Shown: positions 2,453 to 47,800 of the stretch, piece after piece
Layout: every line of letters starts with the position of its first letter
How positions within the stretch are numbered: position 1 is the first letter of the stretch
Assembly (NCBI GenBank): GCA_041694815.1
Contig: JBGFSC010000033.1
Coordinates: 32,001-96,000 of the forward strand
Origin: Elusimicrobiota bacterium
Lineage (GTDB): Bacteria; Elusimicrobiota; Elusimicrobia; UBA1565; JACRDR01
Reading direction: 5' to 3'
Length of the DNA: 64,000 nucleotides
The notes under the pieces: model-generated
What the model was told of the DNA's origin: nothing
The model's input: the letters and a program-made list of their open reading frames with translations, nothing else
The model's database searches: none
Made by a program: the position numbers and the translations under genes

Positions 2453-2488
2453 CCGTCGTGGGATTAAAACGAATAGGCCCCCTCGGCT

Positions 2489-2515: not shown

Positions 2516-2518
2516 GAC

Positions 2519-4257: not shown

Positions 4258-4265
4258 GAGGAAGC

Positions 4266-12528: not shown

Positions 12529-12981
12529 ATGCGAAAAAACTGGAAGGCAATGGGCTGGGCCTTGGCGTGCGCCGCCCTGGCCGCCGGATGCTACGGCCCG
12601 CAGAGCCGCGTCAAGAAGGGCCAGGTGCAGAACACAATCAACCAGGACCCGAACCGCAACCAATACTTAGAGGCGATCGGCATCGGCGCATCCGATCCGG
12701 CGCTCGCCAGCGACACGCAGCGCAAGGCCCTCGCGCGCGACGCCGCCATCGTCAAGGCGCAGTATGAGATGCTCTCCATGGTCAAGGGCGTCATGCTCCA
12801 GGGAGGGGTGACCGTCCAGCGGGCGATGGAGACCGATTCCACGCTCGAGGCGAAGGTCAATGACGTCATCAAAGGCGCCGAGATACTCAAGAGCGAGTTT
12901 ACCGCCGACAACGGCTGCGTCGTGACGATCCGACTCCCGAAGAAGCGGTTGGAGGAGATGATGGGAGTGAAGTTCAAATGA
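12529..12981 (+). CDS. Lipoprotein, LPP20-like
   Basis: Lipobox LAAGC; EAIGIGA..RKALARDAA..KGAEIL; RBS AGGAGG. Confidence 0.75.
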   Translation: MRKNWKAMGWALACAALAAGCYGPQSRVKKGQVQNTINQDPNRNQYLEAIGIGASDPALASDTQRKALARDAAIVKAQYEMLSMVKGVMLQGGVTVQRAMETDSTLEAKVNDVIKGAEILKSEFTADNGCVVTIRLPKKRLEEMMGVKFK

Positions 12982-25223: not shown

Positions 25224-25253
25224 AGCCTTAAATCCGTGTCAAGGGCCTAGGTC

Positions 25254-25281
25254 TTGACAGGCCAAGGGCATCTGCTATACT
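25254..25281 (+). promoter_or_regulatory. Sigma70-type promoter
   Basis: TTGACA (25254-59), 16-bp spacer, TGc-TATACT (-10 at 25276-81), directly upstream of the riboswitch. Confidence 0.8.
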
Positions 25282-25284
25282 TCG

Positions 25285-25380
25285 ACTGTTGTACCGATAA
25301 ACCGGCAAACCCTCCGCGAGGAGGGGGCGCAAAGCGTAGGGCCTGGAGGTCCAGGTCGCCTGGCTACCGAAGACAACAGT
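25285..25380 (+). ncRNA. Cyclic di-GMP-I (GEMM) riboswitch
   Basis: GGCAAAC, ccctcc-GCGA-ggaggg stem-loop, GgCGCAAAGC, gggcct...ctACCGA; flanking actgttgt/acaacagt can close P1. Confidence 0.85.
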
Positions 25381-25480
25381 AGGTTCCGGGGTCGCGCAGC
25401 TGGAGTTCCCGTTTCCGCCCGGCCTTGACTGGCTATCTTCGGGATAGAGGGGTGAGATAGTCAGCGAGGCCGGGCCTTTT

Positions 25481-26011
25481 ATGGGCAACGGGAGGCGCTT
25501 GAAAGGGAATATCGAGGCGGCTTGGGCGTACTGCGGATGGACCGCGTGGCTCGCGGTCTGGGGGTATTGCCTCCCCGCCCCCGCGTACGCCGAGCCGGCT
25601 CCGGTGGGGTTAGAGGCCCAAGGAGTCGATCCTTGGGCCGCTTTGCATAGTCGCGACCTGGACGTGCGTGACGCCTTCAATCGCCCGGTATCCAGGCGCC
25701 TCATCGAGGGCCAAATCAAGGCGGCATCCTCCGGGGCCCGGGATTCGGTCTCATTTTTCTCCAGGCTTCCCAAGGCGCGCTCGGTGCTGGTCTCCTTGGA
25801 ACGGATGCTGATAGCCAGCTGCGGCCTGGCGGCGCCCTCGCCATGGTCCGGTTTACGTATCGCCGTCACTTCCTGGCTGTGCCGCCCGTCGCCCAAGATC
25901 TCGGTGTTCTGGGCCTTCCTGAGTGTCGCCTCGGCTGCCGCTGCGTCGATTTCGCTGGTCGTCATGCAACCCCGCAAAATCGCCTCCCCCGCGCCGGTCC
26001 TGCGCTGTTAA
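25481..26011 (+). CDS. Possible hypothetical membrane/leader protein downstream of riboswitch
   Basis: 176-aa ORF with two hydrophobic segments between the riboswitch and the HEAT gene; no recognisable family. Confidence 0.4.
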   Translation: MGNGRRLKGNIEAAWAYCGWTAWLAVWGYCLPAPAYAEPAPVGLEAQGVDPWAALHSRDLDVRDAFNRPVSRRLIEGQIKAASSGARDSVSFFSRLPKARSVLVSLERMLIASCGLAAPSPWSGLRIAVTSWLCRPSPKISVFWAFLSVASAAAASISLVVMQPRKIASPAPVLRC

Positions 26012-26110
26012 TTCCCGTAAAAGCCCCGTAACAAGTTCCCTGTACAGTTGTTGAAGTTTTGCCGCTCGAGCATTCGGTTTGACGTGGAAAACGAGGAGGA
26101 ATTTTAAGCC

Positions 26111-26884
26111 ATGCCGTTTTACGCGCGCGCGCGCTTCTATAGCGTCCTGATGTGGATCGCCGGGCCGGCGCTTGGGGGTGATGTGCTCCAGAAAGAACTC
26201 GGCCGCATGTCCGACCGAAACCCCGCCGTTCGACGGCAGGCGGCCGCTCGGCTGGCTCATGCCGAAGGGCGCTCGGCTGCGGCGGCGCTCGAGTCCGCCC
26301 TGAAGGATTCCGACGCTTCCGTCCGCCGCGAGGCCGCGCTGGCCCTGGGCCTGCGCGGGTCTCTGGGGTCCGCCCAAGTCCTGATCTCCTGCCTCAAGGA
26401 CCGGGACGCGCAGGTCCGCCAGGGCTGCATCCGGGCGCTGGGACTGATCCGGGCACCCCAGGGGGTCGCACCGCTGTCTTCGGAGCTTAAGCGCGGGGAC
26501 GCGCATGAGAAGGCGGCGGTCTTGGAAAGCCTGGGCCATATAGGCGGCCCCGAGGCTTTCGGCGCCGTCCGCGATGCCTTGAGCGCCTTGCGCGGGAACC
26601 GTCGCCGTGGAGCGCCTATCGATCAGCCCCTGATGCAGGAGGAAGAGGCGATCCGGGCCTTAGGCAGGCTGGGCCGACCCGAGGGAATCCCCTTGGCGAA
26701 AGAGGGACTGAGCTCTCCGGACGATCGCATCCGCGCGGTTTCCTGCTTGGCACTGGCTCGGATGGGCGACGGCTCCGAGCGCCTGCGCTGCGCGGCCCTT
26801 CTGTCTCATCCGGACCCGTTGGTCCTCAAGGATGCGGCCGAGGCCTTGAGCCGGATGGAAGCAAGGGAGAAGGCGCGGGAATAA
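26111..26884 (+). CDS. HEAT/PBS-lyase repeat protein
   Basis: Repeated LKDxDxxVRxxAAxALG units; GAGGAGG upstream; possible signal peptide. Confidence 0.85.
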   Translation: MPFYARARFYSVLMWIAGPALGGDVLQKELGRMSDRNPAVRRQAAARLAHAEGRSAAAALESALKDSDASVRREAALALGLRGSLGSAQVLISCLKDRDAQVRQGCIRALGLIRAPQGVAPLSSELKRGDAHEKAAVLESLGHIGGPEAFGAVRDALSALRGNRRRGAPIDQPLMQEEEAIRALGRLGRPEGIPLAKEGLSSPDDRIRAVSCLALARMGDGSERLRCAALLSHPDPLVLKDAAEALSRMEAREKARE

Positions 26885-26885
26885 T

Positions 26886-29800
26886 ATGGCACGCCCTATC
26901 GCCCTGCTGGCCGGCCTTCTTCTGGCGCCAAGCTTTTGTTGGGCGGTCCCTCAGGATATCTCCGGCGGCATCTCCACCGCCGAACCGGGCTCGAGGAAGG
27001 TATTCTATCACGAATCCTATGATCGGACATGGGTGTTCTACCAGAACAGCTTAAGCAAGTTCGCCTACCAGTCCTACGACGGGGTCAACTGGACGGCAGA
27101 CACCCAGGTTTTTCCGGCGGCGGATGTTTCCGCGGCCGGCTGCACCGGAACCCCGGGCCCCGTGGGTAGCATCTGGTATGTCGCTTCCTCCACCCGCGTT
27201 TATGCCATTGCTGGGGAGGATTCCGCGAACGAAACCAACGACAATACCAACGCCAACTATCCCAACAAGGTCTATTTGCGCCGCGGAGACTTAAATTCGG
27301 ATGGGACGATCACCTGGGGCAGCGTGGCTTGCCGGGCCCGAGACATCACCTTTGACGGCGGATTGGGGGATTATCTGGCGGGGATGTCCGTGTCCATCGC
27401 GGTTCCCGAGGATGAAACCGCAAACGGCGGCAACAACCTCATGTGGGTGGCTCATTTTAGGCGCAGGACCACCGTTTTCCGCCAGGCCCCAGCCGGACAG
27501 AACCAAATCACGGCGGCGACTCTGGGCGGCGGAGTGGATTTGCAAGACGGCCACGCCCTTCAAGAAGCCAGCAACGCCAATGGCTTTGAGAGCGTGGTGC
27601 CTATCAACGATGCCGGGACCTGGAAATTCTTGGTAGGCAATAATGATCGTTCCGATCAATCGGATCCGATCGTAGACCGTTTTGTAGTCAGCGCCGCGGC
27701 CCGGGAGCTTGGCGGAGAACTCGACCCTACCGGTCCCGGGATCAACAACAACGCCTACTCCGTCTCCTTGGCTCCCGAGGGGGCCTCCTCCATTGTCCAT
27801 GCGGCCTATGTCGACAGCAGCGGCCGTATCGCGTATCAAAGGCGCACAGGCGCGGGGACCTGGGCCGCGGCGATCGTGGTGGATGCTTGCGCGGCGGTCA
27901 ATAGCTCTCCGTGCAAAAATCCGTCCGTGGCTTATGTGCCAGACCCCGCGACCTTTAATAGGGTGTATATCGTATATCTTTCCAGCTACGGCGCCGTCAA
28001 TTATGCCGTAGGCCCGGCCACCGCCACGGCAGCCGGAGAATTCACCGTCATCCAAGGCTGGCAGTCGAGCGGATCGAATCCGATCGTTCCGGTTAAAAGC
28101 ACGGCCCCGGCGCCGCTGGCGGTCGTTTGGAACGACGCCTCCCCACAAGCCAAGATCGACTTTATCATCACCTCCGGATACGCGTCCCCGACTGTCAGCT
28201 CGGTGGCCGAAAGCCCCGGCAAGGCCTGGTTAAGCTCCAACAAATTCGATCTGTTGATAACGGGGTCCAACTTCCTGGATCTGGGAGGCACGAAGAAGCC
28301 AAAGGTCAAGCTGTTGGAGAATGGAGCGGATCAATCCGCTATCACGGTCACTTCCACCACCTTCGTCAATGCCAGCACTCTTCGGGCTTCCATCGTCCTG
28401 ATCGCGCCGACGACCTCCTATGACGTGAGGGTTATCAATCCCGACGCGAAGTTTACCGTGTTTCAGGACACGGTGACCATTTCGTCTCCCACCCTGAGCT
28501 CTCTGACGGATGCAGACGGGAACATTCTTTCCGGAGGTATTTTCCCCAACAATAACGGTACGACCGCCATGACGCGGGATGTGACGGTCAACGGTTCTAA
28601 CTTTCAGAACTGGGGCTCCAGCGTTCCCAAGGTCTCCGTCGTTTCAGGGATTTCCTTATATGCCATTACGGGCCTTAGCAGCAACTCGTTTGTCGCAAGA
28701 CTCAAGATTTCAACGACGACGGTTGCCGGCACCTATGCCCTCACGGTTCAGAATCCGGACAATCAATCCGTGACCCAGTCCTCCACCTTTACGGTGACCC
28801 GGCCCTCGGCCACTATCAACTATCCCATCGAAGGCAACGGCCTGCTGGGCGGATTTACCACGGGCTTTGCCACCCTCAACGGGGTGGCAGACTATGATAC
28901 CACGGGGGACGGCCTGGGGGATTCGGTCGCCGGGATCACTCAAAATACATCGGATATACGCATCGTCTCCCTTGGAGGCGCCGGTTGTCCTGCAAACGGC
29001 TATCTCTGGAACGGAAGCGGATTCGCCGCGCCCGGGAGCTTCGCGGATCAGGAGCAGGAGTGGCAGGCGGCCAGCGCCCCGAGCCCGTGGGCGTACTCCA
29101 CCCTCAATATGAATCTATTCCAAGCGGTCGATACCGAAGGGTGTCCCTTCCGGCTGGAATCCCGGGGAAGGAGCTCCGATGGGGGGCGAAGCATGGCTTC
29201 CGGAGCCGGAATCGTCACCCTGACCATGGACCGCAAAAGGCCGGTGATCGATGTCACCTCTCCACCGGGCGGCCAGATCATCAATACGGCCGATAATATT
29301 TTCATGGTTTTCAGCGATGTCTCCGGAGTCAAGAAAGTGGAATTCACGCTCCAGGCGGATACCGAAACGGCCCGTTACTGGACCGGATCCTCCTGGACGG
29401 CGAACGAGATGTGGCTTTCCACCCCGGCCAGTCCCCAGATGCAGTTCAACCCTCCCACCGCCAGCAACAATGTCACCATCAGGACGATAACGGACGATCT
29501 CAAGCGCCCGGCCTGGGTGGATGGATGGAAATATCGGATCAAGGCCAGGGCCACCGACCGGTTGGAGCAATTGGGTTATGCTCCCGGCGGGGCGTCTGCC
29601 CCCACCGAAACGGTGTTCTTCTACGACGTTTCGGCTCCTACGGTGACCTTGGAGTCTCAATGGCTGAACGTCTCCACATGCACCGTGGCCTCCGGTTGCG
29701 CTACCAGCTGGAAAAGGTCCGTCCCGTCGATCGGCGGCGGCATTTCCGACAATGTTTCGATCCTGGAGGCGATCCACAACCCCAACGTCAAATTAAGGAT

Positions 29801-32800
29801 TTTCGACATCACCGCCACCAACCTTTACCTGGACACCGGCACCTTGAGCTTCACCAACATCGCGGCGGGCAACGCCTGGTTCGACGCCAAGAAAAGCGGA
29901 GGCCATGCCAATTGCAGCGTCAACGGCAGCGCCGGAACCTGGAATTGCAGCTTCAGCGCGGTGCCTGTCGGCGGCTCCTGCGGGGCGCAGGGAGGGCCCG
30001 GCTGCGGCTGGCAGAATGGCCGAGAATACCGCATCGAGGTCTACGGGTTAGACGGGGCCGGCAACTCGACCGGCACGGCGGCCAGCCCGCTGTTTACACG
30101 CTATTTCAAATTCGACGCGGACAATCCCACGATCACGATCGACTATCCGATCGAGGGCGGTCTCTACGGGCTCAACGGGACCAACGACCCGCGCGGAAGC
30201 TCGGGCGATTCCACCAGCGGCGTCGACTATGTCGAATACCGACTGGAGTATCCGGGCTCGGGCGGCCTCACCAAATGGACCAAGGGCGTGACCGGATCCT
30301 GTTCGGGCGGAGCCAAGGGCCCCAACGACTGGTGCGACCAGACCGCCGCGATCTGGAACATCGCCGGCACGACCACGACAGTCCCTTATGCCGTCTGGCA
30401 CGCCTCCGAGGCCACCAACGCCGGCAAATGGGTCAACGGCGAGCAATACGCACTGATCGCGCGCGTCGTCGACAAGGCCGGCAATTTCTCGGTGACTTAC
30501 GCCACCGTCACCTTCAAGCTCGACTCCTCCTCGCCCGTCGCCTCGGTGAGCTTTCCGGGCGCCTCCACCTTCTTTAGCGCCCAAATCGGAGGCGTCAATG
30601 GGTTCGTCCAGGATTATCCGTTGACCACGCGGCAAAGCGGAATCGATCTCATGAAAATCGGCATCCAGCGCTTGGGCGACGGCTTCTGGTGGAATGGGGC
30701 CTCCGGCTGGCAGGCGACCCGCAATGACCCGGCCCAAGCAGTGGTTCAGGGCAGCCCCGGGGAAAACACGGCTTGGAGCCACGCGAACTTCGGAGGGTTC
30801 TGGAGCAATATCACCTGGAGCAGCGAGACCTTCCGCGTCTATGCCTGGGCGCAGGACAAGGTGGATCAGCCGAGCTCCGCCTACCGCAATGTGGAGTCGT
30901 CCCAGACCTTGGATCAGACCTTCTATTATGACGTCATGTCCCCGACTTCCTCGGTCATCGCCCCGATCAACAATCAATGGTACAGCGCCGTCTCCGGCTA
31001 CGACCTCTCTTATATATTGGGCACCGCCACGGATCGTCCGGCCTCGGGGCCGGGCTCGGGAAACACCATCTTCCGGGCCTACGCGGAGATCCGCTATCCT
31101 GACGACGGCGATGCCAACAAATGTTGGGGCGGCACGGCTTTCGACAAGCAATGCTATCAGGACGGAGGCGCCACCTGCGGCTCGGCCGCCTCCAGCTGGC
31201 AAGAAATGACGATCTCGGGCAGCTCCTGGACCTTTCCGGTCCAAGCCGGAGGAGGGGCTTTATGGACCGCCATGACGGACGGCAAGACCTATCAGGTCCG
31301 GGTCTGCTCGCTCGACAACGCCGCCGACAGCACGGGCGCATCGAATTTCAGCAGCCGGAACAAAGAAACGAACTTCACGAGCAACGTCAACGAGAAAAGC
31401 CTGCGCGTCGACAAGTCCGGCCCGAGCTCGCTGATCCAATCCCCGAACCAGGCGGAGGTCTCGATCCTGACGACGATCAGCGGGACCGCCAGCGACGGCA
31501 ATAGCGGGATATTCCATGTCCGGGTGGCGTATTACGGCGAGACGGAAGCCAATTGGTGGAACCCCGTCACCCGGGCCTTCGACCTGGGGGGCGCCTCCTC
31601 CAATCCGCCGGATTCCGCTTTCATCGCCGCCTCCACGCAGACGTTAAACCCTGTTCCTTGGGAGGTCAGCGGAGCTTCCATTCCCGCCATGGTCAACGGC
31701 CAATTCTACCGCATCTTCGCCGCGGGCCAGGACCAGGTCTCGAATACGACCACCTTCCCCGGACATGGGAGCTACACGAATCCGCCGACCCAATCTTCCT
31801 TTATAAGGATCAAGCGCGTCGCCGCCGCCCCGACCTCGGCCATCAATGTTCCCGGAGCCGGAGAGCCCCATTACAAGCCCAGCGGCGGACAGTCGCTGAC
31901 CTCGATCTCCGGCTCGCTCGCCGACGCCACCACCCTGCAGATCCGCCTGACGAACGTGAGCGCCGAACCGGATCAGGTATGGACTGGGGCCTCCTGGGTG
32001 TCCACCGTCACGTATCTGGCCGGCTGCACGAACACGACCTATGTCGTCGGGCAGTCCACCTGCGGTTTCATCGGCGCCGACAATACGACATGGTCGGAAA
32101 GCGTCAGCGCACTGCCTTGGCCCGCGGGAACCAACCGCATCCAATGCGAGGCGCGGGCGGCCACGGAAAGCCCGCTGGTCGTGCAGAACGAGCCCTTCCC
32201 CTCGCGGCTCTTCGTTATCGACGGCGATAATCCCAACAATACCCTGACCGAACCTAACGCGGCCTATGAGAGATGGCTCTCGACGATCACCGGCATCGCT
32301 ACGGACATCGGCTTGGGCGTCATCTCGAACGTGGAAATCGCCCTCTCGACCGCCAGCCAGTCCAGTTATTGGAACGGCTCCGGCTCCTGGGTGGTAGGGC
32401 CGGCGATATGGCTGGGCGCGACGGCAAATTCTCCGCCCTTCGATTCCAATAACGAAGCCTGGTCGCGTTCCTCGGGCCTGCCGGCGTTCGAGAACAACAA
32501 GACCTACGAGATCCAGGTCCGCCTGACGGAGAAATCAGGACGGACATTCCTGTTCCCGCAACCAGGGCCGACCTTCAATTTCACGATCGATACGGCCTCC
32601 CCGACCGCGCGCATCCTCGCCCCGGTCGTCAACTCGGGCATCCGCAGCCTGCCGCAATTATGGGGCACCGCGGCCGATAACGGCCAGAACCAGAGCGTGC
32701 AGATCGCGATCCAGAAGCTTTCGGCGACCCCGCTCTGGTACGACGGCGCGGACTTCCTGGTGCCCGGTTCCAATCCCAACTGGATCTTCATCCAAAACGG

Positions 32801-35800
32801 TATCAACGGCTTTTTGTCCGCGGACGCGACGAGCTGGACCTACGCCCCGGCGGGTGTCGACGGGGATTTCACCGGGGGTTTCGAATATCTGGTGCTGACG
32901 CGCTCGACGGATGTGGCCGGCAATATCCAGGATACCTTCGCCGCGGACGTTTCCTCGCGCGTGATCCGCATCGACAAGAGGGCGCCGGAGTCCTACGGAT
33001 CGTTTCCGGTCGACGATGGCGACGGCGCCAGCGGGCGTTATCGTTCATCGCTGGTCGGGCAGACGGGGAATTCGACCCATATTCGAGGTACGGCCCAGGA
33101 CCCGGCCGAGGGGAGCACCCCGTCCGCCGGCGTATTCGCGACACAGCTCCGTCTCTCGTATTTGAGCGGAGGGACCTCGTACTATTGGACCGGGACCACG
33201 TTCAGCTCCTGGACGGTGACGCAGAATTCCGCCTGGAACAGCGCCCTGGTGACCGGCAGCGCCCCCACTTGGAATTGGGATTACCTCGTCAATATCGACT
33301 TCAACGAGGTCGACGGGGCCGCGCAGCCCGCCGTCGACCGCGAGTACCGGCTCGAGATGCGCTCCGAGGACGCCTCCCGACTGGCCGACGGAAGCGGGGC
33401 CGGCAATGTCGAAACGCCATCCAATCCGCCGGCCGACACCCTCCATTTCATCGTCGACGATTCGACCCCGGCCGTGCTTATCACCACGCCTTCGGCCGCG
33501 GCGCTGGGCTCCTTGAGCGAGATCTCAGGCACGGCCGCCGCCGCCCTTTCGGGCCATCGAAGGACGGAACTCAAGATTTCGACGGGCACCGGGGCTAGCA
33601 CCCGCTACTGGACCGGTTCTACGTGGACCGCCAACGAGCATTGGATCACGACCGCGAGGCTTGGCCAGAGCTCCTGGACCTACACCGTGCCGGCCAACCT
33701 ATTCGACGGCGATCTTCCGCTGACCGAATACACGTTCATCGCGCGTACTCTCGATTACGCGGGCAACTATTCCTCGCTGTACTCGACCAAGACCCTGGTC
33801 CATGACGACGTCGCTCCCTATGCGGCCGTCGGATTTCCCATCTCGGGAGGCTTCTACAACGCCGCCGGGATCGTGACGAGCTCTGGCAGCGTCTCGGACA
33901 GCGCCGCCGGGAATACGGGAATCACCGATGTTCGGATCGTTTTAAAACGCGTCGACCCGCCGGTCGGATATTGGAAACAATCGGATAATACCTTTCCGCC
34001 CGGCATCCAGCGATCGACGGTCAATATTTTCACTAGCTCGTGGACCGTCGCGATGCCTGCGCTATTTAGCAACGTCAGCTACCGTATGTGGGTGGAGGCC
34101 ACCGACGGCGCGGGGAACATCTACTGGGCCAACGCGAACGCCTCGCAGGCCGCGGCCGACACGGACATCGGCAATAATGTCGGGGGGGTGCCCTTCCTCT
34201 ACGATAACGATGTCCCGCTATCGGTCACGACCTCTCCCGCCAACAACGCCTTAATCCGCTCGCAGCTCTCGGCAATCGCCGGAACGAGCATCGACGGCCT
34301 GGGCTCCTCGGGACTGTCGACCTCCGCCGGAGACCAGTTCCGCTTCCGCCTGCTGCGCAGCTCCGGCCCCCCGGGAAATTACCAATATTGGCAGGGAGGG
34401 GCTTCTTGGGGCAGCGTGGCCGATTTCTTCATCACCCCCGTTGAGATTGACGCCGCGAACAAGAAATTTTCGTGGATCCAGGCACTTCCCGCCGGGGCCT
34501 TCCTGGATGACGGGCGCGAATATAAAACCCGGATCCGCGCCCGGGACCAGGCCAACAATACGGAATCGGAGAAGGAATACCGCTTCATCTTCGACAGCTC
34601 CGTACCGGACAGCAAGATTACCTCCCCCGCGCACGATTCCTTTATCAATGCCACCGCCTTCACGATCTCCGGCACGGCCGATGATCGCATCAATTACGGC
34701 CAGGGGCAGGATTTCGAGGCCGGTTTGGCCGTCAACGGGGCCTCCGTGGCCGTGCAGCGATTGAGCGACAATCAATGGTGGAGCGGTACCGCTTTCAATC
34801 AAAGCTCCCCTTTCTGGAGTTCCGCTACCTTTGTCGGCGCTTCCTCGGGGACCTTCAGCTACGCGATCACCCTCACGGCCGATACCAGCTATTACGTGGT
34901 CGCCAGGGCATTGGACCTGGCGGGCAATCTCGAAACGGATCTAAGCACCAACACCTTCACCGTCGACCTCCAGAACCCCACCTCCCGGTCGACCTCTCCG
35001 ACCGGGACGCTCAACCAAATGACGGCCATCTACGGCACGGCGAGCGACCTGCTGCCGGGCCAGCTCGACGGGATTCTCCTTAACATCGTCCAGACGGCCG
35101 GGACTGGCTCGCCTCAGACCTGGACGGACACGGGCTGGACGGCGGGGGACTCGAGCATCTGGGTGGGCACCGGCACGATCGGCGCGCTCATCACCGGAAC
35201 CACCTACGCCTGGAGCTTCTCCGGCAGCACGATCGCCTGGCTCGCCGATTCCAGCTATAAGGTAAGCACCCGCGCCCGGGACAAGGCCGGCAATTACCGC
35301 CCGATTCCCGGCAGTCCGGATATCACCTTCTCGCTCGCCGGGCCCTTATCCGGCATCACCACTCCGAGCAACGGCGCCCCGCATTTCAAGTCGGCGGCCC
35401 TGACCTCGATACTGGGCACGGCGATCAATTCCTCGACCGCCGCCGTGCGCCTGACCCAGGCCGGCCCGGACCATGCCTTCGCGGTGGGCAACGACGATCT
35501 GGCCTGGCATAGCGGCTTGGGCTGGGTGTCGACCAACACCTTCAACGGCTACATCGGCGTGACCAGCTACAACGGCGCCCCCGACCCGGACACCTGGAGC
35601 TATTCCTTCTTGGCCGCCAACTGGCAGAACAATCGCAAGTACAAGGCCGAGTCCATAGGCCGCACCCTATCGCCCGCCGTGGACCAGAGCGTGTTCACGG
35701 GAGCGGAGACCCGCGAGTTCATCATCGACGATTCCGCGCCTTCGGCGGCCGTCACCCTGCCCAGCGCGCTCTATTACCGAGCCGGGCAATTGCCGAATTT

Positions 35801-38800
35801 CACCGGCACGATCACGGATACGGTCCCCGGAGCGGCCAATTCGGCCAGCGTGCGCTTTAGGCTCTTGCGCATGAAGGATAGCTACGAGTGGAACGGTTCG
35901 ACCTTCGCGGCCTCCGGCATCGACCTCGTCCCGACCGATCAGGGCGGGGGCAATTACAGCTTCGCCAACTCCACCGGCGACGCGGTGTTCGAGGACGGCC
36001 TTCTCTACAAGGTGCGCATCACCGCCCAGGACCTGGCGACGAACCAGACGGTGGTCGAGCAGCCCTCTCCCAACGGGTTCCGCTTCGACGTGTCCAAGCC
36101 CACGGCGACGATCAGCGTCCCCAAGGCAGGGTATGTCATCAATAGCCTGCCGCAGCTCAGCGGCACGGCGGCCGATTTCATGTCCGGTTCGGGCAATTAT
36201 CAGGGCTCCGGGGTGTCCGGCGTGAATGTCTACCTGCAGAACCTGGCCAACGGCAGCTATTTCAACGGCTCGGGCTTTTTGAGCGCGACGCCGGTGCCCT
36301 TGGCGGCCTCCTTCTACGCGCCGAGCGGCACCTGGACCTATACCTCGGGATCGCTGGAGTCCTCGCTGACCGACGGGCTCTACAGCCTCTACGTCGAGGC
36401 CGCCGATAACGCGGGCAATGTCCAGGTGAATTTCACCGCCAACAACTCCTCGAGGACCTTCGCCATCGACAAGACGGCGCCGAGTAGGGCCATCACGACT
36501 CCCGTGTCCCAGGCCTATACCCCCGCGGCGATATTTTCCGCCAATGTCACGGGCACGAACACCGATTCCGTGGTCAACAGCACGGCGGCCGGGGCGGATT
36601 TCGTCGAATTGCAATTGTGGTATGTCGTCGGGGTCAGCAGCTATTACTGGAGCGGCTCCTGGAGCACGACGATCAGCACGCTGCAGGCCTCCGGCGCCTC
36701 CTGGAGCCTTCTGGCCCAGCAGCCGCCTCAGACCGGAGCCAACAGTTGGGCCCGCGGCGCCGACGCGGTGGATACCGAGCGGCGCTATTACGTTCGAGTG
36801 CGGGCGCATGACAAATCCACCCTCGGAGACGGTTCGGTGAGTCCTTCTACGGGTAATGTAAGCAGCTGGAGCTCGCCGCTGGGATTCATCGTCGACCCGA
36901 TCCTGCCTGTCTCCTCGGTGACGACGCCTTCCAACGGCAGCTTCGCCAGCGCCCTGCCCTCGATCTCGGGCACGGCCGACGGGGGGCTTTCGGGTCTCGG
37001 TTCCCCCGGCGGGGTGGTGGTCCGCATCACGACCAACCCGAGCACCGGCCCGGACTGGAACGGAAGCGCGTATTCGTTCACGGGGGTGCCGATATTCCGT
37101 TCCGTGACGGTCACGGGCAACAGCTGGTCGTATCCGGGATCTACGGGAGACAATTTGACGGGGGCCTTCCAGGACCATAACGTCTACTACGTCTATTCGA
37201 AGGCCACCGACGGCGCCGGAAATCCCGAGTCAGGCATGTTCGTTTCCACCGTCACCATCGACGCCTCGGCGCCGAGCTTGTCGATCAGCCATCCGAGCAC
37301 TCCGCCGAACCCGCCCTTCTATTCGAACAACACCGAATCGACGCGCAAGAGCACCTATACCTGGGGCGCAATTTCGGACCCCGCTCCCGTGCCTTCCGGC
37401 GTCACGCAGGTCTGGGTGGCGATTGCCTCCGGCTCCTCGCTCAATGTTTGGTGGAGCACGACGACCAACAGCTTCAGCGTCAATCAAACCGCCGTCCACT
37501 GGTCGACGCAGGTATACGTGCCCGGCGCCGCGCGCTGGGAATATTATCCGCCCTGGACGCTTTCGGACCAGATCAGCTACAAGGTCTTCGTCCGGGCCAG
37601 CGATGGGGCAGGCAACTGGACGGGCAACATCGTCAATCCCGGCGATGCCGGAGAGCTCTCGCAGCAGTTCAAGTACGACATACTCCGCCCCACGGGCACG
37701 GTGAGCGGTCCGGCCAACGGGAGCAACGTCAAATCCTTGGCCGCCTTCTCGGGCAGCGCGGCCGACCCCGGCGGCAGCGCGGGCTCGGGCATCCAGATCG
37801 TCTATGCCGGCGTGAAGAAGACCTCGGTGATCCCGAACGAATGGTGGAACTGGGGCACGAAGCAATTCGATTCCGGGCTCAGCGATCCTCCGGCCCTCTC
37901 CCCTTTAAGCGCGGCCTGGACCCAGGTGGCGACCACCAGCGCCCAAGGCTTCAATTCCGTCGGCTGGTCGACGCCGGTGCCGGTGAATATGCTGGTGAGC
38001 TCCAACACCTACCAGGTGGTGGTGGCGGCCGTGGACTGGGCGACGAATCGCCCGCCGGACGCTGAGCCGACGCTCTCGGGAGCCGGCGCGAATTTCCGCT
38101 ACGACACCCAGGCCCCGGTGGTGGCGGCCACCTTTCCGGTCAGCGGGCTGGCCTATAACGCGGCGAGCCTGACTCCTCTCGCCGGCACGGCGGCGGACAA
38201 CACGACGGGCAATTCCGGAGTGCAGAGCGTCCAGATCTTGCTTAAGAACAGCGTGACCAACTCCTATTGGAGCGGCAGCGGCAATATCTTCGATGCCCCG
38301 CCTTCCGGCTATTCCAATTGGGTAACGATGAGCGGCAAGGAAACCTGGAGCCGCTCCTGGCCGTCGCTCGACAGCAACGTCAAATACATCCTGTGGGTGC
38401 GGGGCAGCGATAACGCTGTCAACATCTCGACCTACCCGGCCTACCCGGCCGATCAGGGCCGGCTCGACGCCAACCAGAACATCGACGGCAGCGTGGCGAT
38501 CAACTTCATCTACGACACCGACCCGCCGGTGTCCAAGATGACCTCGCCCCAGCCGGGGGCCTATATCCAGAACCCGGCCGTTTTGGCGACCGTCTCCGGC
38601 ACGGCCTATTCAGACGTCGCCAACGTTTCGGGAGCCTCCTATGTCGACCAGGTGCGGCTCAATCTGTATTGCTCGGGCTGCGCGGCGGGCGATGTGCCGG
38701 GCTGGTGGACGGGAGGCGGTTGGAGCACGACGCAGCCCGATCCGCCGCAATTCGCCGCCTCCGGACCGCCTGGCAGCCCCTCGGTCAACTGGAGCTTTAG

Positions 38801-41800
38801 CTTCTCGAACAGTTGGGCTGAGGGCTACCAGTACATCGTCTACTCCCGCGCCCGGGATTTCGCCACGAACCTGGAGTCGCCCCAGGCCCAGGGCGGCTTC
38901 ATCGTGGACCTGAGCACTCCTTCGGCGAGCCTCGTCTCTCCCGCCAATAATGTCTTCTACGTGAGCGTCAGCTCGGTCACGGGGTCGGCCGACGACCGCT
39001 TCTGCACCTTCAACCCGGCTTTGTGCGTCGTCAACAACCGCGACAAGCAGGCCGGCATCGCCGGCTCCAGCGTCACCGTGGTGATCCAGCGCCTGAGCGA
39101 CTACAAATACTGGAGCGGTACCGCCTTCGACTCCACCGTGCCCGTCTGGTCCTCGGCCAATTTCGTCGGGATGTCCAGCGGAACCTGGAGCTACTCGATC
39201 AACCCGAGCTTCCTGGTCGACGGATCGAGCTTCGCGGTGACGGCGCGGGCCAAGGACCAGGCGGGCAATCTGCAGCTTTCCTATAGCACGAATGTCTTCA
39301 CCATCGACTCGCAAGCCCCGACTTCGATGGCTACGGCGCCGGCTACGACGGTCGATGTGATGACTCCCATCTACGGCACGGCCAGCGACCCCGCCATCGG
39401 AGTGCTCGATGGCGTGCTGCTCAACATCGTGCAAACGGTGGGCAACGGCTCGCCTCAGACCTGGACGGACACGGGCTGGGTCGCCGGGAACTCGAGCATC
39501 TGGGTGGGCACCGGCACGATCGGCGCGCTCATCACCGGAACCACCTACGCCTGGAGCTTCTCCGGCAGCACGATTACCTGGCTGTCGAACTCCACCTATC
39601 AGATCAAGACCCGCGCCCGGGACAAGGCCGGAAATTACCGTCCCGTTCCCGGCAGCGCGGACCTGAGCTTCTCCATCTCCGGCCCGCTTTCGGGCATCAC
39701 CACTCCGAGCAACGGCGCCCCGCATTTCAAGTCGGCGGCCCTGACCTCGATACTGGGCACGGCGATCAATTCCTCGACCGCCGCCGTGCGCCTGACCCAG
39801 GCCGGCCCGGACCATGCCTTCGCGGTGGGCAACGACGATCTGGCCTGGCATAGCGGCTTGGGCTGGGTGTCGACCAACACCTTCAACGGCTACATCGGCG
39901 TGACCAGCTACAACGGCGCCCCCGACCCGGACACCTGGAGCTATTCCTTCTTGGCCGCCAACTGGCAGAACAATCGCAAGTACAAGGCCGAGTCCATAGG
40001 CCGCACCCTATCGCCCGCCGTGGACCAGAGCGTGTTCACGGGAGCGGAGACCCGCGAGTTCATCATCGACGATTCCGCGCCTTCGGCGGCCGTCACCCTG
40101 CCCAGCGCGCTCTATTACCGAGCCGGGCAATTGCCGAATTTCACCGGCACGATCACGGATACGGTCCCCGGAGCGGCCAATTCGGCCAGCGTGCGCTTTA
40201 GGCTCTTGCGCATGAAGGATAGCTACGAGTGGAACGGTTCGACCTTCGCGGCCTCCGGCATCGACCTCGTCCCGACCGATCAGGGCGGGGGCAATTACAG
40301 CTTCGCCAACTCCACCGGCGACGCGGTGTTCGAGGACGGCCTTCTCTACAAGGTGCGCATCACCGCCCAGGACCTGGCGACGAACCAGACGGTGGTCGAG
40401 CAGCCCTCTCCCAACGGGTTCCGCTTCGACGTGTCCAAGCCCACGGCGACGATCAGCGTCCCCAAGGCAGGGTATGTCATCAATAGCCTGCCGCAGCTCA
40501 GCGGCACGGCGGCCGATTTCATGTCCGGTTCGGGCAATTATCAGGGCTCCGGGGTGTCCGGCGTGAATGTCTACCTGCAGAACCTGGCCAACGGCAGCTA
40601 TTTCAACGGCTCGGGCTTTTTGAGCGCGACGCCGGTGCCCTTGGCGGCCTCCTTCTACGCGCCGAGCGGCACCTGGACCTATACCTCGGGATCGCTGGAG
40701 TCCTCGCTGACCGACGGGCTCTACAGCCTCTACGTCGAGGCCGCCGATAACGCGGGCAATGTCCAGGTGAATTTCACCGCCAACAACTCCTCGAGGACCT
40801 TCGCCATCGACAAGACGGCGCCGAGTAGGGCCATCACGACTCCCGTGTCCCAGGCCTATACCCCCGCGGCGATATTTTCCGCCAATGTCACGGGCACGAA
40901 CACCGATTCCGTGGTCAACAGCACGGCGGCCGGGGCGGATTTCGTCGAATTGCAATTGTGGTATGTCGTCGGGGTCAGCAGCTATTACTGGAGCGGCTCC
41001 TGGAGCACGACGATCAGCACGCTGCAGGCCTCCGGCGCCTCCTGGAGCCTTCTGGCCCAGCAGCCGCCTCAGACCGGAGCCAACAGTTGGGCCCGCGGCG
41101 CCGACGCGGTGGATACCGAGCGGCGCTATTACGTTCGAGTGCGGGCGCATGACAAATCCACCCTCGGAGACGGTTCGGTGAGTCCTTCTACGGGTAATGT
41201 AAGCAGCTGGAGCTCGCCGCTGGGATTCATCGTCGACCCGATCCTGCCTGTCTCCTCGGTGACGACGCCTTCCAACGGCAGCTTCGCCAGCGCCCTGCCC
41301 TCGATCTCGGGCACGGCCGACGGGGGGCTTTCGGGTCTCGGTTCCCCCGGCGGGGTGGTGGTCCGCATCACGACCAACCCGAGCACCGGCCCGGACTGGA
41401 ACGGAAGCGCGTATTCGTTCACGGGGGTGCCGATATTCCGTTCCGTGACGGTCACGGGCAACAGCTGGTCGTATCCGGGATCTACGGGAGACAATTTGAC
41501 GGGGACCTTCCAGGACAACAACATCTACTACGTCTATTCGAAGGCCACCGACGCCGCTGGCAACCCCGAGGCCGGGATGTTCGTTTCCACCGTCACCATC
41601 GACGCCTCCGCCCCGACGGCGGCCATCCATCGGCCGGCGGCTCCCGCAGGCTCCCCGTATTCCAACGTCTCCGTTTCCACGCGAAAAATACTGTTGAGCT
41701 CGGGCGCGGTGAGCGACAACGGAGCCGGGGCCTCCGGCGTTTCCGTGGTTTGGCTGGCCATCTCCTCGGGCTCGGGAGCCTCGGCGAAATGGTGGAGCGA

Positions 41801-44800
41801 CGGGACGCAGAGCTTCAGCGTGGGGCCGCAGCTCGCCGTCTCCTGGTCGACGCAGGTCTACCAGGGAGGGAGCTCCTGGAGCTACGGGCCCGCTTCCTTC
41901 GCTTCCGCCTTCCAGAACGGAAATTACTACACGGTGTTTCTCCGCGCCCAGGACAAGGTCGGCAATTGGACCGGCAATATCGTCAATCCAGGGGACGCCG
42001 GGCAGATATCGCAGCAGTTCCTCTATGACGACGTAGTCCCGGCCACCACCATCCAAGCCCCCTGGGGCGCCTTCATGAACAGCAGCACCACCACGCTGTG
42101 GGGTACGGCCGCGGATGTCGGGCTGGTGAACTCCGACGTGTTGGACGTCAAGTTGGCCGTGCGCCAGGGCGCGGCCTGGTGGAATTTCCAGACTAACGCG
42201 GGCTTCAACGTAGCCGACCCTTCCGACATCAATGGAGCCGCCTGGAGCACGACAACGGTGACGAGCTTGGGCGGCGGGCAGTGGAAATGGCAGCTTCCCT
42301 TCTCGACGGCCAATTACACCAGCGGCACGAGTTATCAGATCGTCGCGCGCGGCAAGGATAAGGCCACCAATATCACGATCGGCGCGCCGCCCACGAGCGA
42401 GGGTACGACCTTCCTCTACGATAACGGGGCGCCCCTAATCAATTCCACCTTCCCCGCCAACGCGCAGGCCTACAATGCCGCGCGGCTCGAGCCCCTGGCG
42501 GGCACCGCCAGCGACGCGAGCACGGGCAACTCGGGAGTGCAGACGGTGCGCATACTGCTCAAGAATAAGAACTTGAACAGCTATTGGAGCGGCTCCGGCA
42601 GCACCTTCGATTCCCCGCCGGGCGGCTACTCTAATTGGGTCACGATGACCGGGACTGGCACCTGGAGCCGGGCCTTGCCGACGTTGAGCGACAACCAGCA
42701 GTACGTTCTCTGGATGCGGGCCCATGATTTCGCGACGAACGTGTCCACCTATCCGGCCTATCCCGCTGATCAAGCGCGTCTCGACTCGAACCAAAGCATG
42801 GACGGCTCGGCCGCTCTGACCTTCACCTACGACAATTCGCTGCCGGTGTCCAAGCTCACCAGCCCCAAGCCGGGCTCGGCGGTGGCCAATACCGGGGCCG
42901 TCGCGACGATCTCCGGCACGGCGTATACCGACGCGCCGAACACGATCACCGGTTCCGTGGTGGACCAGGTGCTCATCAATCTGCATTGCTCGGGCTGCGC
43001 GACCGGCAATGTTCCCGGCTGGTGGAACGGCGCCTCCTGGGATAGCGGCGCAGAGCCCAACCCGCCTCTATTCGGCGCGGCCCTGGCCTTGCCGAACTGG
43101 TCCTACTCGGCCTTCCCGTCCGGCATCTGGCTCGACGGCTACCGTTACACGATCTATTCGCGCGCCAGGGACGCGGCGCAGAACCTCGAATCGCCGGAAG
43201 CCGCCGGGGCCTTCGTCGTCGACCGCAGCACGCCGCTGTCGAAACCGGATTTTCCCGCCGACAACGGATTCACCAACGCCTCGGCGGTCACGCTGACCGG
43301 GACGGCCAACGACCGCTTCTGCGAGATCAATCCCGGGCTCTGCATCAACGGGGTCCGGAGTTTCGAGGCGGGAGTCGCCACGGTCAGCGTGCTGGTGCAG
43401 CAGATGGACGGAATCAATAACTACTTCTGGGACGGCGGCTCCTTCGCCTCGGCGGCGCCGGTGTGGTCGACGGCGCCATTCGTCGGGATGTCGAGCGGGA
43501 CTTGGAGCTACGCCCTGCCCGCCGCGCAACTCTCCACCCCGATGCGCTACAAGGCCAGCGTGCGGGTCGAGGACAAGGCCGGCAATATCCAGACCTCGGC
43601 GGTCATCACCACCAACACCTGGGTGCGCGACCTGACGCCCCCCGTGTCCATCGCCACGGCTCCCGCGGGCCAGTTCAGCGGGGTCTCCTCGATACATGGG
43701 ACCGCGCGCGACGCCTCGCCCGGAGAACTGGATGTGGTTCTCCTGTCCATCCAAGAGACCGCCTGCAGCAATCCCAGCGGCAACTGCCACGTCAACCAAT
43801 ACTGGAACGGCAGCACCTGGACCGTGGGCCAGGTCTGGCTGGCCTCGGGCACCATCGGCAGCCTGATCTCCGGCACGACATATGCCTGGACGATGAACGC
43901 CTCGAGCATCTTGTGGGACAACAAATCCACGTTTACCGTGATCGCGGCCGCCCGGGACAAGGCGGGGGTGGTGGAGGCCACGCATAGCAGCCCCGACATC
44001 ACCTTCTATATCGAGACCCCGGAGGCGACCATCGCCTTGAACCAGCCCCCGAGCCCGGGCGGCGCCTCCTACCAATCGAACGCCGCCACCGTCATCCAGA
44101 TCAACGGCACCGGGACGAATATGAAGCTCAGCGGAGGCGTCCAGCTGCACCTCAAACGCCTGAGCGAACCGACCAGCTACTGGTACGACCTTAGCCAGCG
44201 ATGGGTCAACGACGCCTCCACCTACACCCCGGTCAACGTGATCGACGGCAGCCCGCAGACCTGGAATTACTCGCTTAACTTCCCCTATTCGGTGAACAAC
44301 TCTTCCTACATCCTGACGGTGACCCCCGTCAACAACGCCAATCAAGCGGGCAGCGGACCCAAGACGGCCCTCTTCTACATCGATAATAGCGCCCCTGTCA
44401 GCGCCGTCACCAGCCCCTCGGGACCGAGCTGCGGCGGGGCCAACGGCTGCCTCAATACCTTCGCGGTCTCCATCGCCGGCAATTCCAGCGACCCGGGCAA
44501 TATCAATCCATTGCCCACCATCGTTCAGAGCGGGGTGAAGCTCCGCGTCAAGAATAACGTCACTGGAGACTATTGGAACGGCGCCAATTTCGTGGGCAGC
44601 GTCAGCGAGATCGGCGTGGGGCCCTTGAGCGGCGGACCTCCGACCTTCTCCTGGAGCACGGGTCCTTATATCGGCGGATTGCGCGACGGGGTAGACTACA
44701 CGATCTACGCCCACGCGCAGGACACCGCCGGCAACGACACGGTGTCCGAAGGGCAGATGACCTCCTTCAGCTTCGTCTATGACACCAGCCCTCCGACCGG

Positions 44801-47800
44801 CTATTTGGTCCTGCCCTCCTCGGGCTTCGCCTACGGGAACCTGACGACGATCAGCGGCACCTCGGCCGACGCCGCGGGCGCCAATCCGAATAACCGCCGC
44901 TCGGACATGGACCGCGTCGAACTCCAGATCTTCGATCCCAAGAATAATTTCTGCTGGAGATCGGATAATTCCTGGGGCGGTTGTCCGAGCTGGGTGACGG
45001 CGGCCGGAACCGCGCCGTGGAGCTACTCGAACGCCAACCTGATCGCGCCGAACCTCGTCAGCGGAAATCAGTACATCATCACCGCCCGCGGCGTGGACAA
45101 GGTCGGCAATACCCAGGGCGTCTTCGCCGTGCCCGATTCGAGCCATACCGTGGCGATCGATACGGTGGCTCCCACGATCGGCCTCATCGTCCCCGCGGAC
45201 GGGCAGGCCTATGTCAGCGGGGCGTTGAACGGCGGCACGGCCTTAAGCGGCACCGCCGCCGACGCCCAGGCCGGGCTGCATCCGTCCGGAGACGCCCTGC
45301 AGAGCGTCGAGCTCGTGCTTTGGTATCTCCATGACTCGCCGACGCCGGGCACCAGCTATTACTTCACCGGGTCCATCGGCTCCAACGGCACCAAGTTCTC
45401 GTCCAACACGGTCGAGTCCTCCAACTGGAAGGTGGCCGCGAGCACCGCGAACTGGTCCTTGCAGTTCTTCGCCGCCGACTGGGTCTTGGATCGCCGCTAC
45501 TACATCAAGGCCCGCGCTACGGACAAGTCGCGCAATCCCAACGGGACGCTCAACGGCAATCAGACGAGCGTCTTCACCCAGGGCAAGAATCTCGTCAGCT
45601 TCGTCGTCGACGACATCGCGCCCGTCTCGCGCTCCACCTTCCCGGCTCCCAACAGCTACGTCCAGAACCTCAACTTCATCTCGGGCACCTCGAATGCGGA
45701 TCTGTCGGGCGCGAGCACCTATTATTTGCGCATTGTATACCTTGCCGCGGGCGACACGTATTATTGGAACGGCACGGGCTGGGGAGCGGCCAACGTGCAG
45801 ACCCAATTGCCGATCCAGATCCCGAACTCCACGGGCACGCTCCATTGGAGCTATCCGGTGAGCTGGCATACAAGTCCGGATATGACCGGCCGGCCGGATG
45901 GGACCATCTTCTTCGTCGCGATGCAGGCCAAGGACAAGGCCGGCAATCTGGAGACTCCGACCACGATCCAGGTCACCTTGCAGACGAACCCGCCGGCGGT
46001 CTCGATCTCGACGCCGATGGCGAGCATGCCGTATTACGGCGCCGCCCGGCCGCTCGATCCGCTGCGAGGCACCTCCGCGGACTCGATTTCCGGAGTCAAA
46101 GAGGTGCGCGTGCAGATCAGCAATCTCTCGGACGGCACCAAGTGGAACAATTCCTCATGGCAGGTGCTGGCCTCTTCCTTCAATATCGCCACCGGCACGA
46201 ATCCCTGGACATACGCGGCTCCGTCTTGGGTCAATAATAAGTCCTACCGCGTCGATGTGCAGGCCGACAATTTCGCCGGGGTCTCATCCAATCCCGCGGC
46301 CGGAGTGCTATTTACCTACGATGTCAACGCCCCCTCGAGCGCGATCCAGGTGCCTTCGCTGGCCTGGTATCCCCAAGGCCAGCCGAGCTCGTTGAGCGGC
46401 ACGGCGCAGGACTGGGTGCATTATCCTTCCACGCAGGCCAAATCGGGGCTGCAGCATGTCGAGATCGCCATCACGAACCAGGCCGGCGATTACTGGCAGG
46501 GAGGCTGCCCGGGAAGCTTCGCCGCCGGAGCGAGCTGGAGATGGGTGTCGACGACGACGGCCGATCCGGCGAGTTGGAGCTATCCGCCGTCGGTTCCGGC
46601 CGGAGATTGCATCCCGCCATGGCAGAACAATCAGCAATACACGGTGCAGGTGCGCGCCTACGATAACACGGGCAATCCGGAGAACACGCCGTATCAGACG
46701 CGAACCTTTCGCTACGACGCGTTCAAGCCGACGACGACGGTGACCGAGCCGGCCAACGCCTCCTACGTGCAGAGCATCTCGACCTTCAGCGGCTCCTACA
46801 CCGAAAACGAGTCGGGAGTGGCCAGCATCAAGATCGCGATCAAGAACCAGGCGAACAATTGTTGGGACGGCAGCGGCTTCGCCCTGGACTGCTCGGTGGC
46901 GCCGCCGGCCTCGGCCTGGTTCAACGCGGCGGTGCATACCTCGACCTGGTCGTACTACAGCCCCAATTTCGCCGCTTATTTCGCCGCCCTGAGCGTTCCC
47001 GTCCAGTTCTACGTCTACGCCGCGGGCCAGGACGTGGCCGGCAATCTCAACCGCTCGACGACGACGACGCTGACGAACGGCTCCGCCAACGTCAGCTTCT
47101 TCATCGACCATTTCCCGCCCGAGTCCAGGACCACGGCACCGGCCGCGGGCTACAGCCAGAATCTGGTCGCCTCCATCGCCGGGACAGCCAACGAACTCAA
47201 CCTCAGCAACGAGGCGGGATTATCGGGCACGACGGCGGTGGGCCTGCGCGTTTCGGCTACGGACGGCAACGGAACCATCCGCTATTGGGACGGCATAGAC
47301 TGGTCGCTGACGGATCAAGGCTTCAATGTCCCGATCGACGCGGGCTACAGCGGCGGCACCCCCGGGGGCACCCAGATGTCGTGGAGCCACAACGCGACGT
47401 ATCTGCCCGTATCCCAGTTCCGGGAAGGCCTGAGCTATAGGATCTCCTCGAGGGCCCGCGACCTGAGCCTGCCGCCCAACTATGAGGGGACGAGCATCAC
47501 CACGATCACATTCCTCATCGACCGCTCAACGCCGACGGCGGCCTTCCTCGTGCCGATTTCGACCAACATCGGGCAGCCGGTCTACATCAGCACCAGCAAT
47601 TTCAGCCTGTCCTCGGGTACGCTGGCCGACCCGAACTTCACGCTCGGCGCCCCCTTCAACGCCCCGAGCGTGCCCTCGGGCATCTCGGCTGTCGACTTCC
47701 AGATCGAGGATGTCTCGGCGTCGATCCCCGACTGCACCGGGGCCTGCAAATGGTGGAACCCGAATACGCCGGGCTGGCAATCTACCGAGTTCAGCTCTTC

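Follow-up and report, generated by a model that had tools for sequence, protein, structure and literature searches.

Riboswitches of the cyclic di-GMP (c-di-GMP)-I class, also called GEMM-I, have been described in front of genes for surface structures. In C. difficile, the Cd1 element is an OFF switch over a flagellar operon (PMC9262584), and in B. thuringiensis, Bc2-cap is an ON riboswitch over the gene for a collagen adhesin (PMC4933901). Here, a GEMM-I aptamer is described within a stretch of 64,000 nucleotides (nt) from an Elusimicrobiota bacterium (GenBank assembly GCA_041694815.1, contig JBGFSC010000033.1, positions 32,001 to 96,000 of the forward strand), called the window below. The aptamer precedes an open reading frame (ORF) for a leader protein of 176 amino acids (aa), a gene for a HEAT-repeat protein and a gene for a giant protein with immunoglobulin (Ig)-like repeats. 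Proteins of at least 10,000 aa are frequent in Elusimicrobiota, according to a study of this phylum and of Omnitrophota (bioRxiv 10.1101/2023.11.21.568195), the main text of which makes no mention of riboswitches, c-di-GMP or type IX secretion. On balance, the arrangement is read here as a c-di-GMP OFF riboswitch over the leader-HEAT-giant unit, in which the leader is possibly a second, ribosome-stalling checkpoint.

Several described leaders bear on the second part of this reading. Stop-dependent arrest peptides include those ending in NSP-stop, NAP-stop and DGMK-stop, and SecM, VemP, ApdA and ApdP are known as monitors (bioRxiv 10.1101/2023.09.02.556018); the screen reported in that study was restricted to neighbours of sec and yidC genes, and an L-R-C-stop ending does not appear in its main text. 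TnaC, SpeFL and CruR combine stalling at the stop codon with Rho-dependent attenuation (PMC12360218), and CutF, an exported leader protein, shows that such leaders can sense the periplasmic state (PMC9973294).

The unit runs in the order promoter, aptamer, covarying terminator hairpin, 176-aa ORF, HEAT gene and giant gene (Table 1). The near-consensus promoter and the three genes named in the original prediction were recovered (ORF starts at 25481, 26111 and 26886), the ATG of the giant lying 1 nt past the TAA of the HEAT gene. The promoter is the only site of its kind between 25150 and 27000, where 0.2 ± 0.5 would be expected from shuffled sequence, and it would place the start of transcription near 25288. 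It is retained in all 40 orthologous loci, about 40 nt upstream of the aptamer; promoter-like sites inside the unit occur in five of the 40, at unshared positions, and not in the genome studied here. In most loci the next gene overlaps the HEAT gene or lies directly against it. Synteny supported the suggestion that the riboswitch heads an operon, and the genes from the aptamer to the giant are very probably co-transcribed. That the riboswitch controls the small ORF only, with the HEAT gene and the giant under a promoter of their own, is most improbable. The 99-nt gap before the HEAT gene has a strong ribosome-binding site, and a TTGACG hexamer (26079-26084), which had been put forward as a possible refutation of the operon, does exist there; however, no -10 hexamer stands at a distance of 16-18 nt from it, the promoter scan left it uncalled, a start at that point would fall inside the HEAT reading frame, and no promoter was found in the interval here or shared across the 40 loci.

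Inverted repeats surround the -35 box of the promoter (25237-25266), with the forms TGTCAAG-N9-CTTGACA and CTTGA-N3-[T/C]CAAG. The latter scores 9-10 out of 10 in 20 of the 40 orthologous promoters and recurs at nine of 51 strong promoters of the genome, including that of the second riboswitch described below; it is possibly an operator.

GEMM-I aptamers were present in 49 of the 61 genomes searched. The N-terminus of the giant has an orthologue in 20 relatives, all of them with an aptamer about 1.2-4.5 kb upstream; 19 of these aptamers were found by the search, and the twentieth (G011) is divergent, with an insertion in P2 (E 5e-5). The leader ORF is a single-copy gene in 43 of the 61 genomes, each time with an aptamer just upstream (40 loci were parsed, G002 and G011 were read separately, and the pairing in G039 was made by coordinates alone). 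Giant and leader occur together in 42 genomes, the ORF only in one, the giant only in two and neither in 16, counts taken from related genomes and from many fragmented assemblies. The second ORF was assigned in 36 loci, and 31 of the 32 that were aligned match HEAT_2; left out of the alignment were an inserted gene (G025), two near-duplicates and G052, in which no HEAT gene stands at that position and the giant comes directly after the leader. The HEAT protein, originally suggested as a possible chaperone or anchor, begins by inspection with a signal-peptide-like stretch. In a 301-genome sample of the phylum, the leader was found in 22 genomes, including two from other families which, outside the alignment, repeat the aptamer, an ORF ending in LRC-stop, intervening genes and a giant homologue. 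Seven of the ten clusters of leader homologues that were looked up are labelled Elusimicrobiota by source.

Extra genes stand between the leader or HEAT gene and the giant in several relatives (L105, L106, L116, L117, L089, L090, L092, L191 and L192). Among the inserted genes are one for a membrane protein of 900-990 aa, which we take to be spermidine-synthase-like, and repeated small ORFs in genus g10; those in G190 and G192 look by eye like radical-SAM and glycosyltransferase genes. Further GEMM-I aptamers in relatives (L035, L043, L049, L119, L124, L125 and L118) head a secreted family of about 290 aa or large secreted proteins, and in G019 two near-identical aptamers 1.6 kb apart flank an inserted gene.

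The proposed GEMM-I aptamer passed the covariance-model check. RF01051 (c-di-GMP-I) was the sole Rfam match at the gathering threshold across the window (cmscan; cut-off 35 bits, E 1.8e-8), and the match covers the full length of the model (1-87). In Vc2 numbering, the pocket positions are G20 (G25304), A47 (A25331), presumably a pocket nucleotide, and C92 (C25367); the loop of P2 is GCGA. G25304 immediately precedes GCAAAC and the 3' ACCG is retained at A25366-G25369, both as originally read. The role of C92 in the ligand pocket is taken from published work on this class, according to which G20 recognises guanine and wild-type Vc2 discriminates against 3',3'-cyclic GMP-AMP (cGAMP), and A20 aptamers are able to bind both c-di-GMP and cGAMP (PMC6140456). 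G20 is found in 39 of the 41 orthologous (giant-type) aptamers and A20 in two (G007 and G060). The pairing that extends P1 has analogues in many orthologues and is weak in genus g11.

The genome contains exactly two GEMM-I aptamers. The second lies 228 nt past the stop codon of the giant, 4.5 kb beyond the window (C38:100453-100529; L108:5454-5530), has its own TTGACA/TATACT promoter and heads a gene of the PorV/PorQ family (E 6e-28). It carries A20, as do eight of 41 PorV-type aptamers, among them those of all six genomes of the host's family; most others have G20. J1/2 of the giant-type aptamer is here 2 nt longer than in PorV-type aptamers, a variant common to many orthologues. When 21 PorV-type leaders were folded, the start codon lay 1-6 nt past the aptamer in all of them, and in 18 a U-run, in most cases preceded by a hairpin, fell within the first 130 nt. 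In the genome studied, the start codon stands right behind the second aptamer, and the hairpin and U-run fall inside the region coding for the signal peptide.

Hypr cyclases carry Ser at a signature position where canonical GGDEF proteins have Asp (PMC6456294). The genome, which is 97.8% complete, has seven GGDEF matches, three of them canonical diguanylate cyclases with Asp at this position; the Hypr Ser occurs in none of the seven, and no SMODS domain, which would indicate another kind of cGAMP synthase, was found. The G20 majority, the Asp-type GGDEF proteins and the lack of both Hypr Ser and SMODS make c-di-GMP the likely ligand of both aptamers, and that of the giant's aptamer is very probably c-di-GMP. 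It is highly unlikely that the ligand is cGAMP, or both messengers, with the giant and the PorV-type operon answering to different messengers through their G20 and A20 aptamers. A20 in the downstream aptamer throughout the family, in eight PorV-type aptamers overall and in two giant-type ones would suit such a split, but the giant's aptamer has G25304 in place of the A20 that marks cGAMP (GEMM-Ib) riboswitches, and G20 discriminates against cGAMP in Vc2 (PMC6140456). The assumption that A at position 20 by itself marks cGAMP was also too strict, since A20 aptamers can bind c-di-GMP (PMC6140456), and no matching synthase was found among those tested. The A20 of the downstream aptamer may instead tune affinity.

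Between the aptamer and the leader ORF, a hairpin and a U-tract resemble an intrinsic terminator. In an alignment of 31 loci picked for carrying the loop motif, 97.5% of cells are paired, and 11 of the 22 pairs show compensatory change; this covariation was reached by none of 500 shuffles, and slid controls dropped to 31-52%. The loop motif is present in 32 of the 40 loci, and the U-tracts of 32 loci have 4-8 U in 9 nt. The loop was also considered as a conserved peptide (RDRGV), and this was rejected: compared with the leader ORF it may stand in frame 0, 1 or 2, there are stops upstream and third positions are invariant, all of which argues for conservation as RNA. Neither for the loop nor for the sequence around the stop codon was a fixed long-range partner found at a position shared across loci.

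In folds of transcripts cut at the loop, CCGAAGA (25367-25373), which contains C92/C93, pairs with UCUUCGG (25436-25442) in a duplex of -13.6 kcal/mol; none of 200 shuffles gave one as stable. As the switching strand and its flank also form P1, ligand binding would favour the terminator, and the aptamer and hairpin together are probably a transcriptional OFF switch. Without ligand, CCGAAGA would pair with UCUUCGG at the apex of the hairpin and block completion of the terminator, letting RNA polymerase enter the 43-kb unit; with c-di-GMP bound, the strand would be locked in P1, the terminator would form and transcription would end near 25480. The duplex is at or below -12 kcal/mol in 14 of 33 loop-bearing loci, that of the genome studied included, and weak in 19. 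An ATG or GTG that reads into the loop lies no more than 12 nt from the aptamer in all 19 weak-duplex loci and in four of the 14 strong ones, a difference which suggests that ribosome-driven antitermination replaced RNA pairing in the weak-duplex lineages. In these, a start codon 4-10 nt past the aptamer would send a ribosome through the hairpin, with the same logic.

The opposite polarity, in which c-di-GMP promotes read-through and cells with high c-di-GMP make the giant as a biofilm adhesin, appears unlikely. Aptamers of this class act in both directions (PMC9262584; PMC4933901), the terminator dominates the equilibrium fold, and a large Ig-repeat surface protein would suit an adhesin. However, no terminator-blocking helix was found that could coexist with the aptamer in its ligand-bound form; the alternative helices use nucleotides of the aptamer, C92/C93 in the strong loci and P2 or J2/3 in genus g11, and ligand-stabilised P1 would mask, rather than free, a start codon beside its 3' strand. 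The OFF switch itself has several points against it. Its polarity derives from minimum-free-energy (MFE) and duplex calculations, and the terminator fold of the full-length leader (-89.7 kcal/mol) is more stable than the forced antiterminator fold (-78.2 kcal/mol) by 11.5 kcal/mol, so that switching must be kinetic. In truncated folds of genus g11, the antiterminator partner is P2/J2-3 and not the P1 strand. The loop motif is missing in eight of the 40 loci, the U-tract here is modest (CUUUUAUGG, 5 U in 9 nt), and a simple terminator scan did not call the hairpin at 25417-25475. The division of start codons between weak and strong loci is drawn from related genomes, 12 of the 19 weak ones belonging to one genus, and the genome has one NusG only, with no NusG paralogue that could serve as an antiterminator and explain read-through of 41 kb. 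Of the original proposal that c-di-GMP gates a giant surface system, the gating is supported by the G20 class-I aptamer, the conserved unit and the Asp-type cyclases, and adhesion switched on by the messenger gives way to a predicted OFF switch.

Table 1. Elements of the riboswitch-headed unit, in positions of the window (C38, contig coordinate).
Feature	Position	Strand	Remarks
Sigma70-type promoter, TTGACA-16-TATACT, extended -10	25254..25281	+	11/12 consensus
5' strand of P1 extension, GUUGU	25288..25292	+	pairs with 25373-25377 in MFE folds
c-di-GMP-I (GEMM-I) aptamer	25294..25371	+	Rfam RF01051, 56.9 bits; GNRA-capped P2
Switching strand CCGAAGA (contains C92/C93)	25367..25373	+	predicted antiterminator partner of 25436-25442
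Intrinsic-terminator-like hairpin and U-tract	25417..25482	+	stem 25417-25475; conserved 11-nt loop 25441-25451; bulged U25453
Leader ORF, 176 aa, signal-peptide-like N-terminus, [LI]DVRD..RPV motif, L-R-C-stop	25481..26011	+	single copy in 43/61 genomes
C-rich tract, CCCC at 26024-26027	26012..26030	+	after leader stop
HEAT-repeat protein, 257 aa, signal-peptide-like N-terminus (by inspection)	26111..26884	+	HEAT_2, E 4e-30
(CG)6C alternating palindromic run after U-rich stretch	26122..26134	+	conserved by position
Giant Ser/Thr/Gly/Ala-rich protein, Ig-like repeats	26886..64000, on to C38:100225	+	open to window end

The leader ORF is the most unusual part of the cassette and, judged by its predicted export signal, an unnamed exported family. 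It has no Pfam or NCBIfam match. The ratio of non-synonymous to synonymous substitution rates (dN/dS, 0.30-0.39 in six g11 genomes) shows purifying selection and thus argues for a real gene. Searching 1.84 billion representatives with a profile yielded 120 hits; four long Ig-repeat proteins, which matched at the VRD..NPV hairpin motif only, were dropped and 116 short homologues kept; 102 of the 116 end in L-x-[C/L/I] and 83 in LRC. In the 95 homologues that allowed the measurement, 118.4 ± 2.0 aa separate the DVRD motif from the C-terminus, compared with a HEAT protein length of 244 ± 29 aa. A hydrophobic window lies near the N-terminus in 89 of these 95 (on the Kyte-Doolittle scale only), and a C-terminal hydrophobic segment in only 51, so that the LRC end would come to lie in different compartments once released. 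AlphaFold modelled the leader as an ordinary helical protein (predicted local distance difference test, pLDDT, 73; predicted template modelling score, pTM, 0.40). A fold search of the PDB with this model gave no match and the ESM Atlas no usable one, and a predicted complex of leader and HEAT protein scored 0.00, which speaks neither for nor against their association. The LDVRDAFNRPV motif (25640-25690) weakly matches a VRD..NPV stretch in four long Ig-repeat proteins, a likeness that may be chance or cargo mimicry.

Several features around the end of the leader are conserved at the nucleotide level. The ORF always comes first, ahead of an untranslated gap of 100-220 nt (99 nt to the HEAT gene here). 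Of 35 Cys-ending leaders, 29 use TGT for this residue, against 11 of 68 Cys codons in the giant, and the stop codons of 39 loci comprise 21 TGA, 18 TAA and no TAG, against a background of 25% TAG (at G060, where the assembly has a gap, LRC is followed by TGA). CCCC occurs at +11 to +21 from the stop codon in 34 of the 40 loci, compared with 3.6% of 1,031 other stops. The excess of C over G in the 20 nt after the stop averages 6.8, against 0.3 in the background, and is here only 4, a value reached by 15% of background stops. The C-rich tract is a possible Rho-loading or ribosome-edge element; Rho is encoded in the genome. A (CG)n run of at least 8 nt lies within 330 nt of the leader stop in 35 of 40 loci, compared with 7.7% of random windows. 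It is kept 100-260 nt past the stop, in non-coding sequence in genus g10 and within non-HEAT genes in G052 and G025, and could be a pause site, a protein site or a Z-forming element.

The chances that the leader has a co-translational role, as a candidate stop-codon arrest or monitor peptide, are a little short of even. A ribosome would stall at L-R-C-stop and gate the downstream genes, most plausibly through Rho. Somewhat less probably still, the leader is an ordinary envelope accessory of the giant, its C-terminus being a protease/PDZ tag or a structural end, with no stall. The ordinary helical model is in keeping with this, as are purifying selection over the whole protein and a conserved end of only the last 3-4 residues; L-x-[C/L/I]-COOH presumably fits the general pattern of C-terminal PDZ/Tsp ligands. 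Such an accessory would, however, leave the TGT bias, the absence of TAG and CCCC at a fixed distance, all of them nucleotide-level signals, unexplained; its tail would be cytoplasmic in about half of the homologues and periplasmic in the others, and the ORF is always first, before its untranslated gap.

Arrest at the leader stop has objections of its own. The search profile contained the C-terminus itself, conservation at this end is restricted to the last 3-4 residues, and the leader ends in VLRC or PLRC, with no RAPP/RAGP-like or other known arrest motif. At some 20 nt, and with GC hairpins behind it in many cases, the C-rich tract is shorter than would suit a Rho site. That a stalled ribosome unmasks the ribosome-binding site of the HEAT gene, as in SecM, was considered and rejected, a gain above 0.15 being predicted in only three of 34 loci, all in genus g10 and none here. 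Readthrough or frameshifting from the leader into the HEAT gene was likewise rejected, as the spacing varies in frame. Among 24 segments, no convincing second LRC-ending gene of a sorting type was found in the genome, and the leader is single copy in each genome.

The giant gene (C38:58886-100225) encodes 13,779 aa at full length. Orthologous open frames of 10,000-14,000 codons indicate that this size is real. The protein carries Big_13 (Ig-like) matches, and its C-terminus matches FlgD (E 1.6e-5), TIGR04183 (16.9 bits, E 0.0047) and, weakly, PorU tails. In Bacteroidota, type IX secretion system (T9SS) cargo such as SprB works with PorV. We infer that the giant is a type-IX-like exported surface filament, against which it counts that its T9SS type A tail score falls below the cut-off of 23 bits. 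An identical duplication of 1,812 bp within the gene (35352-37163 and 39693-41504) may be recent or an assembly artefact. Just past the stop codon lies a palindromic repeat of 80-90 nt (L108:5230-5315) that resembles repetitive extragenic palindromic (REP) elements and has BLAST hits on 21 contigs of the genome.

Two other loci in the window have recognisable contents. A bacterial microcompartment (BMC) locus at 1504-7447 comprises genes for phosphate propanoyltransferase, BMC shells, EutN vertices, aldehyde dehydrogenase, RpiB and a DeoC-type aldolase, and a predicted lipoprotein gene cluster with LPP20, GNA1162-like and CsgG matches lies at 12529-15542.

In the OFF-switch reading, the giant would be used together with the PorV-like operon behind it, which has its own promoter and aptamer, and high c-di-GMP would turn both off, as it would a motility apparatus. 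A more far-reaching version is speculative and rather unlikely as a whole: a two-stage checkpoint of RNA and ribosome would gate a 1.4-MDa filament, first by the OFF riboswitch and then by an LRC-stop arrest family with a 118-residue ruler that monitors envelope export or assembly and controls transcription of the giant, and a twin riboswitch would coordinate the PorV operon. If true, an undescribed surface-motility machine repressed by c-di-GMP would have its regulatory signature in the two aptamers. Polarity offers a handle on the function of the giant proteins of Elusimicrobiota, as OFF would point to motility or surface exploration and ON to biofilm adhesion. The leader, if arrest is true, would provide a new stop-codon motif that monitors the export of giant cargo rather than the Sec machinery itself. 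RNA pairing and ribosome-driven antitermination at one orthologous terminator would constitute a natural experiment in the evolution of expression platforms.

A riboswitch over an adhesin gene is of a known kind, as in Bc2-cap (PMC4933901), and the suggestion that the combination may be undescribed is narrowed to that extent; the promoter-aptamer-leader-HEAT-giant cassette itself was not found in print, in searches that covered main texts and few subscription journals. As in Cd1 (PMC9262584), the 3' strand of the aptamer is predicted to swap between P1 and an antiterminator, and the aptamer heads a long surface or motility operon. Unlike Cd1, the target is a single 41-kb gene with two small, predicted exported proteins; the terminator has a near-invariant 11-nt loop, and about half of the lineages appear to be ribosome-antiterminated. 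With Bc2-cap (PMC4933901), the locus shares a c-di-GMP-I riboswitch and a terminator before a surface-protein gene, but Bc2-cap switches ON a single wall protein of a Gram-positive host, whereas OFF is predicted here and the cargo is a T9SS-like giant of a diderm.

The leader shows three of the four features by which monitoring arrest peptides were screened (bioRxiv 10.1101/2023.09.02.556018). Like SecM, VemP, ApdA and ApdP, it is a small, unannotated upstream ORF with an N-terminal export signal, a spacer of more than 30 aa and a conserved C-terminus at the stop; unlike them, it does not stand upstream of secA, secDF or yidC, the next gene in the loci read being that for the HEAT protein or the giant. 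As in TnaC, SpeFL and CruR (PMC12360218), the C-terminus is conserved up to the stop and C-rich sequence comes next, in a genome with Rho, but the leader has no RAPP or proline-rich motif, its C-rich tract is short and it lies behind a riboswitch and ahead of a giant surface protein. By analogy, a Rho link of this kind would fit the leader better than SecM-type unmasking. The leader resembles CutF (PMC9973294) in being exported, by its predicted signal, and differs from it in having no metal-binding Cys/His motif. The giant and the gene behind it, finally, recall SprB and PorV in the signal peptide, the repeat-rich giant protein, the type-A-like tail and the adjoining gene of the PorV/PorQ family, and depart from them in a host outside Bacteroidota and a tail score below the cut-off.

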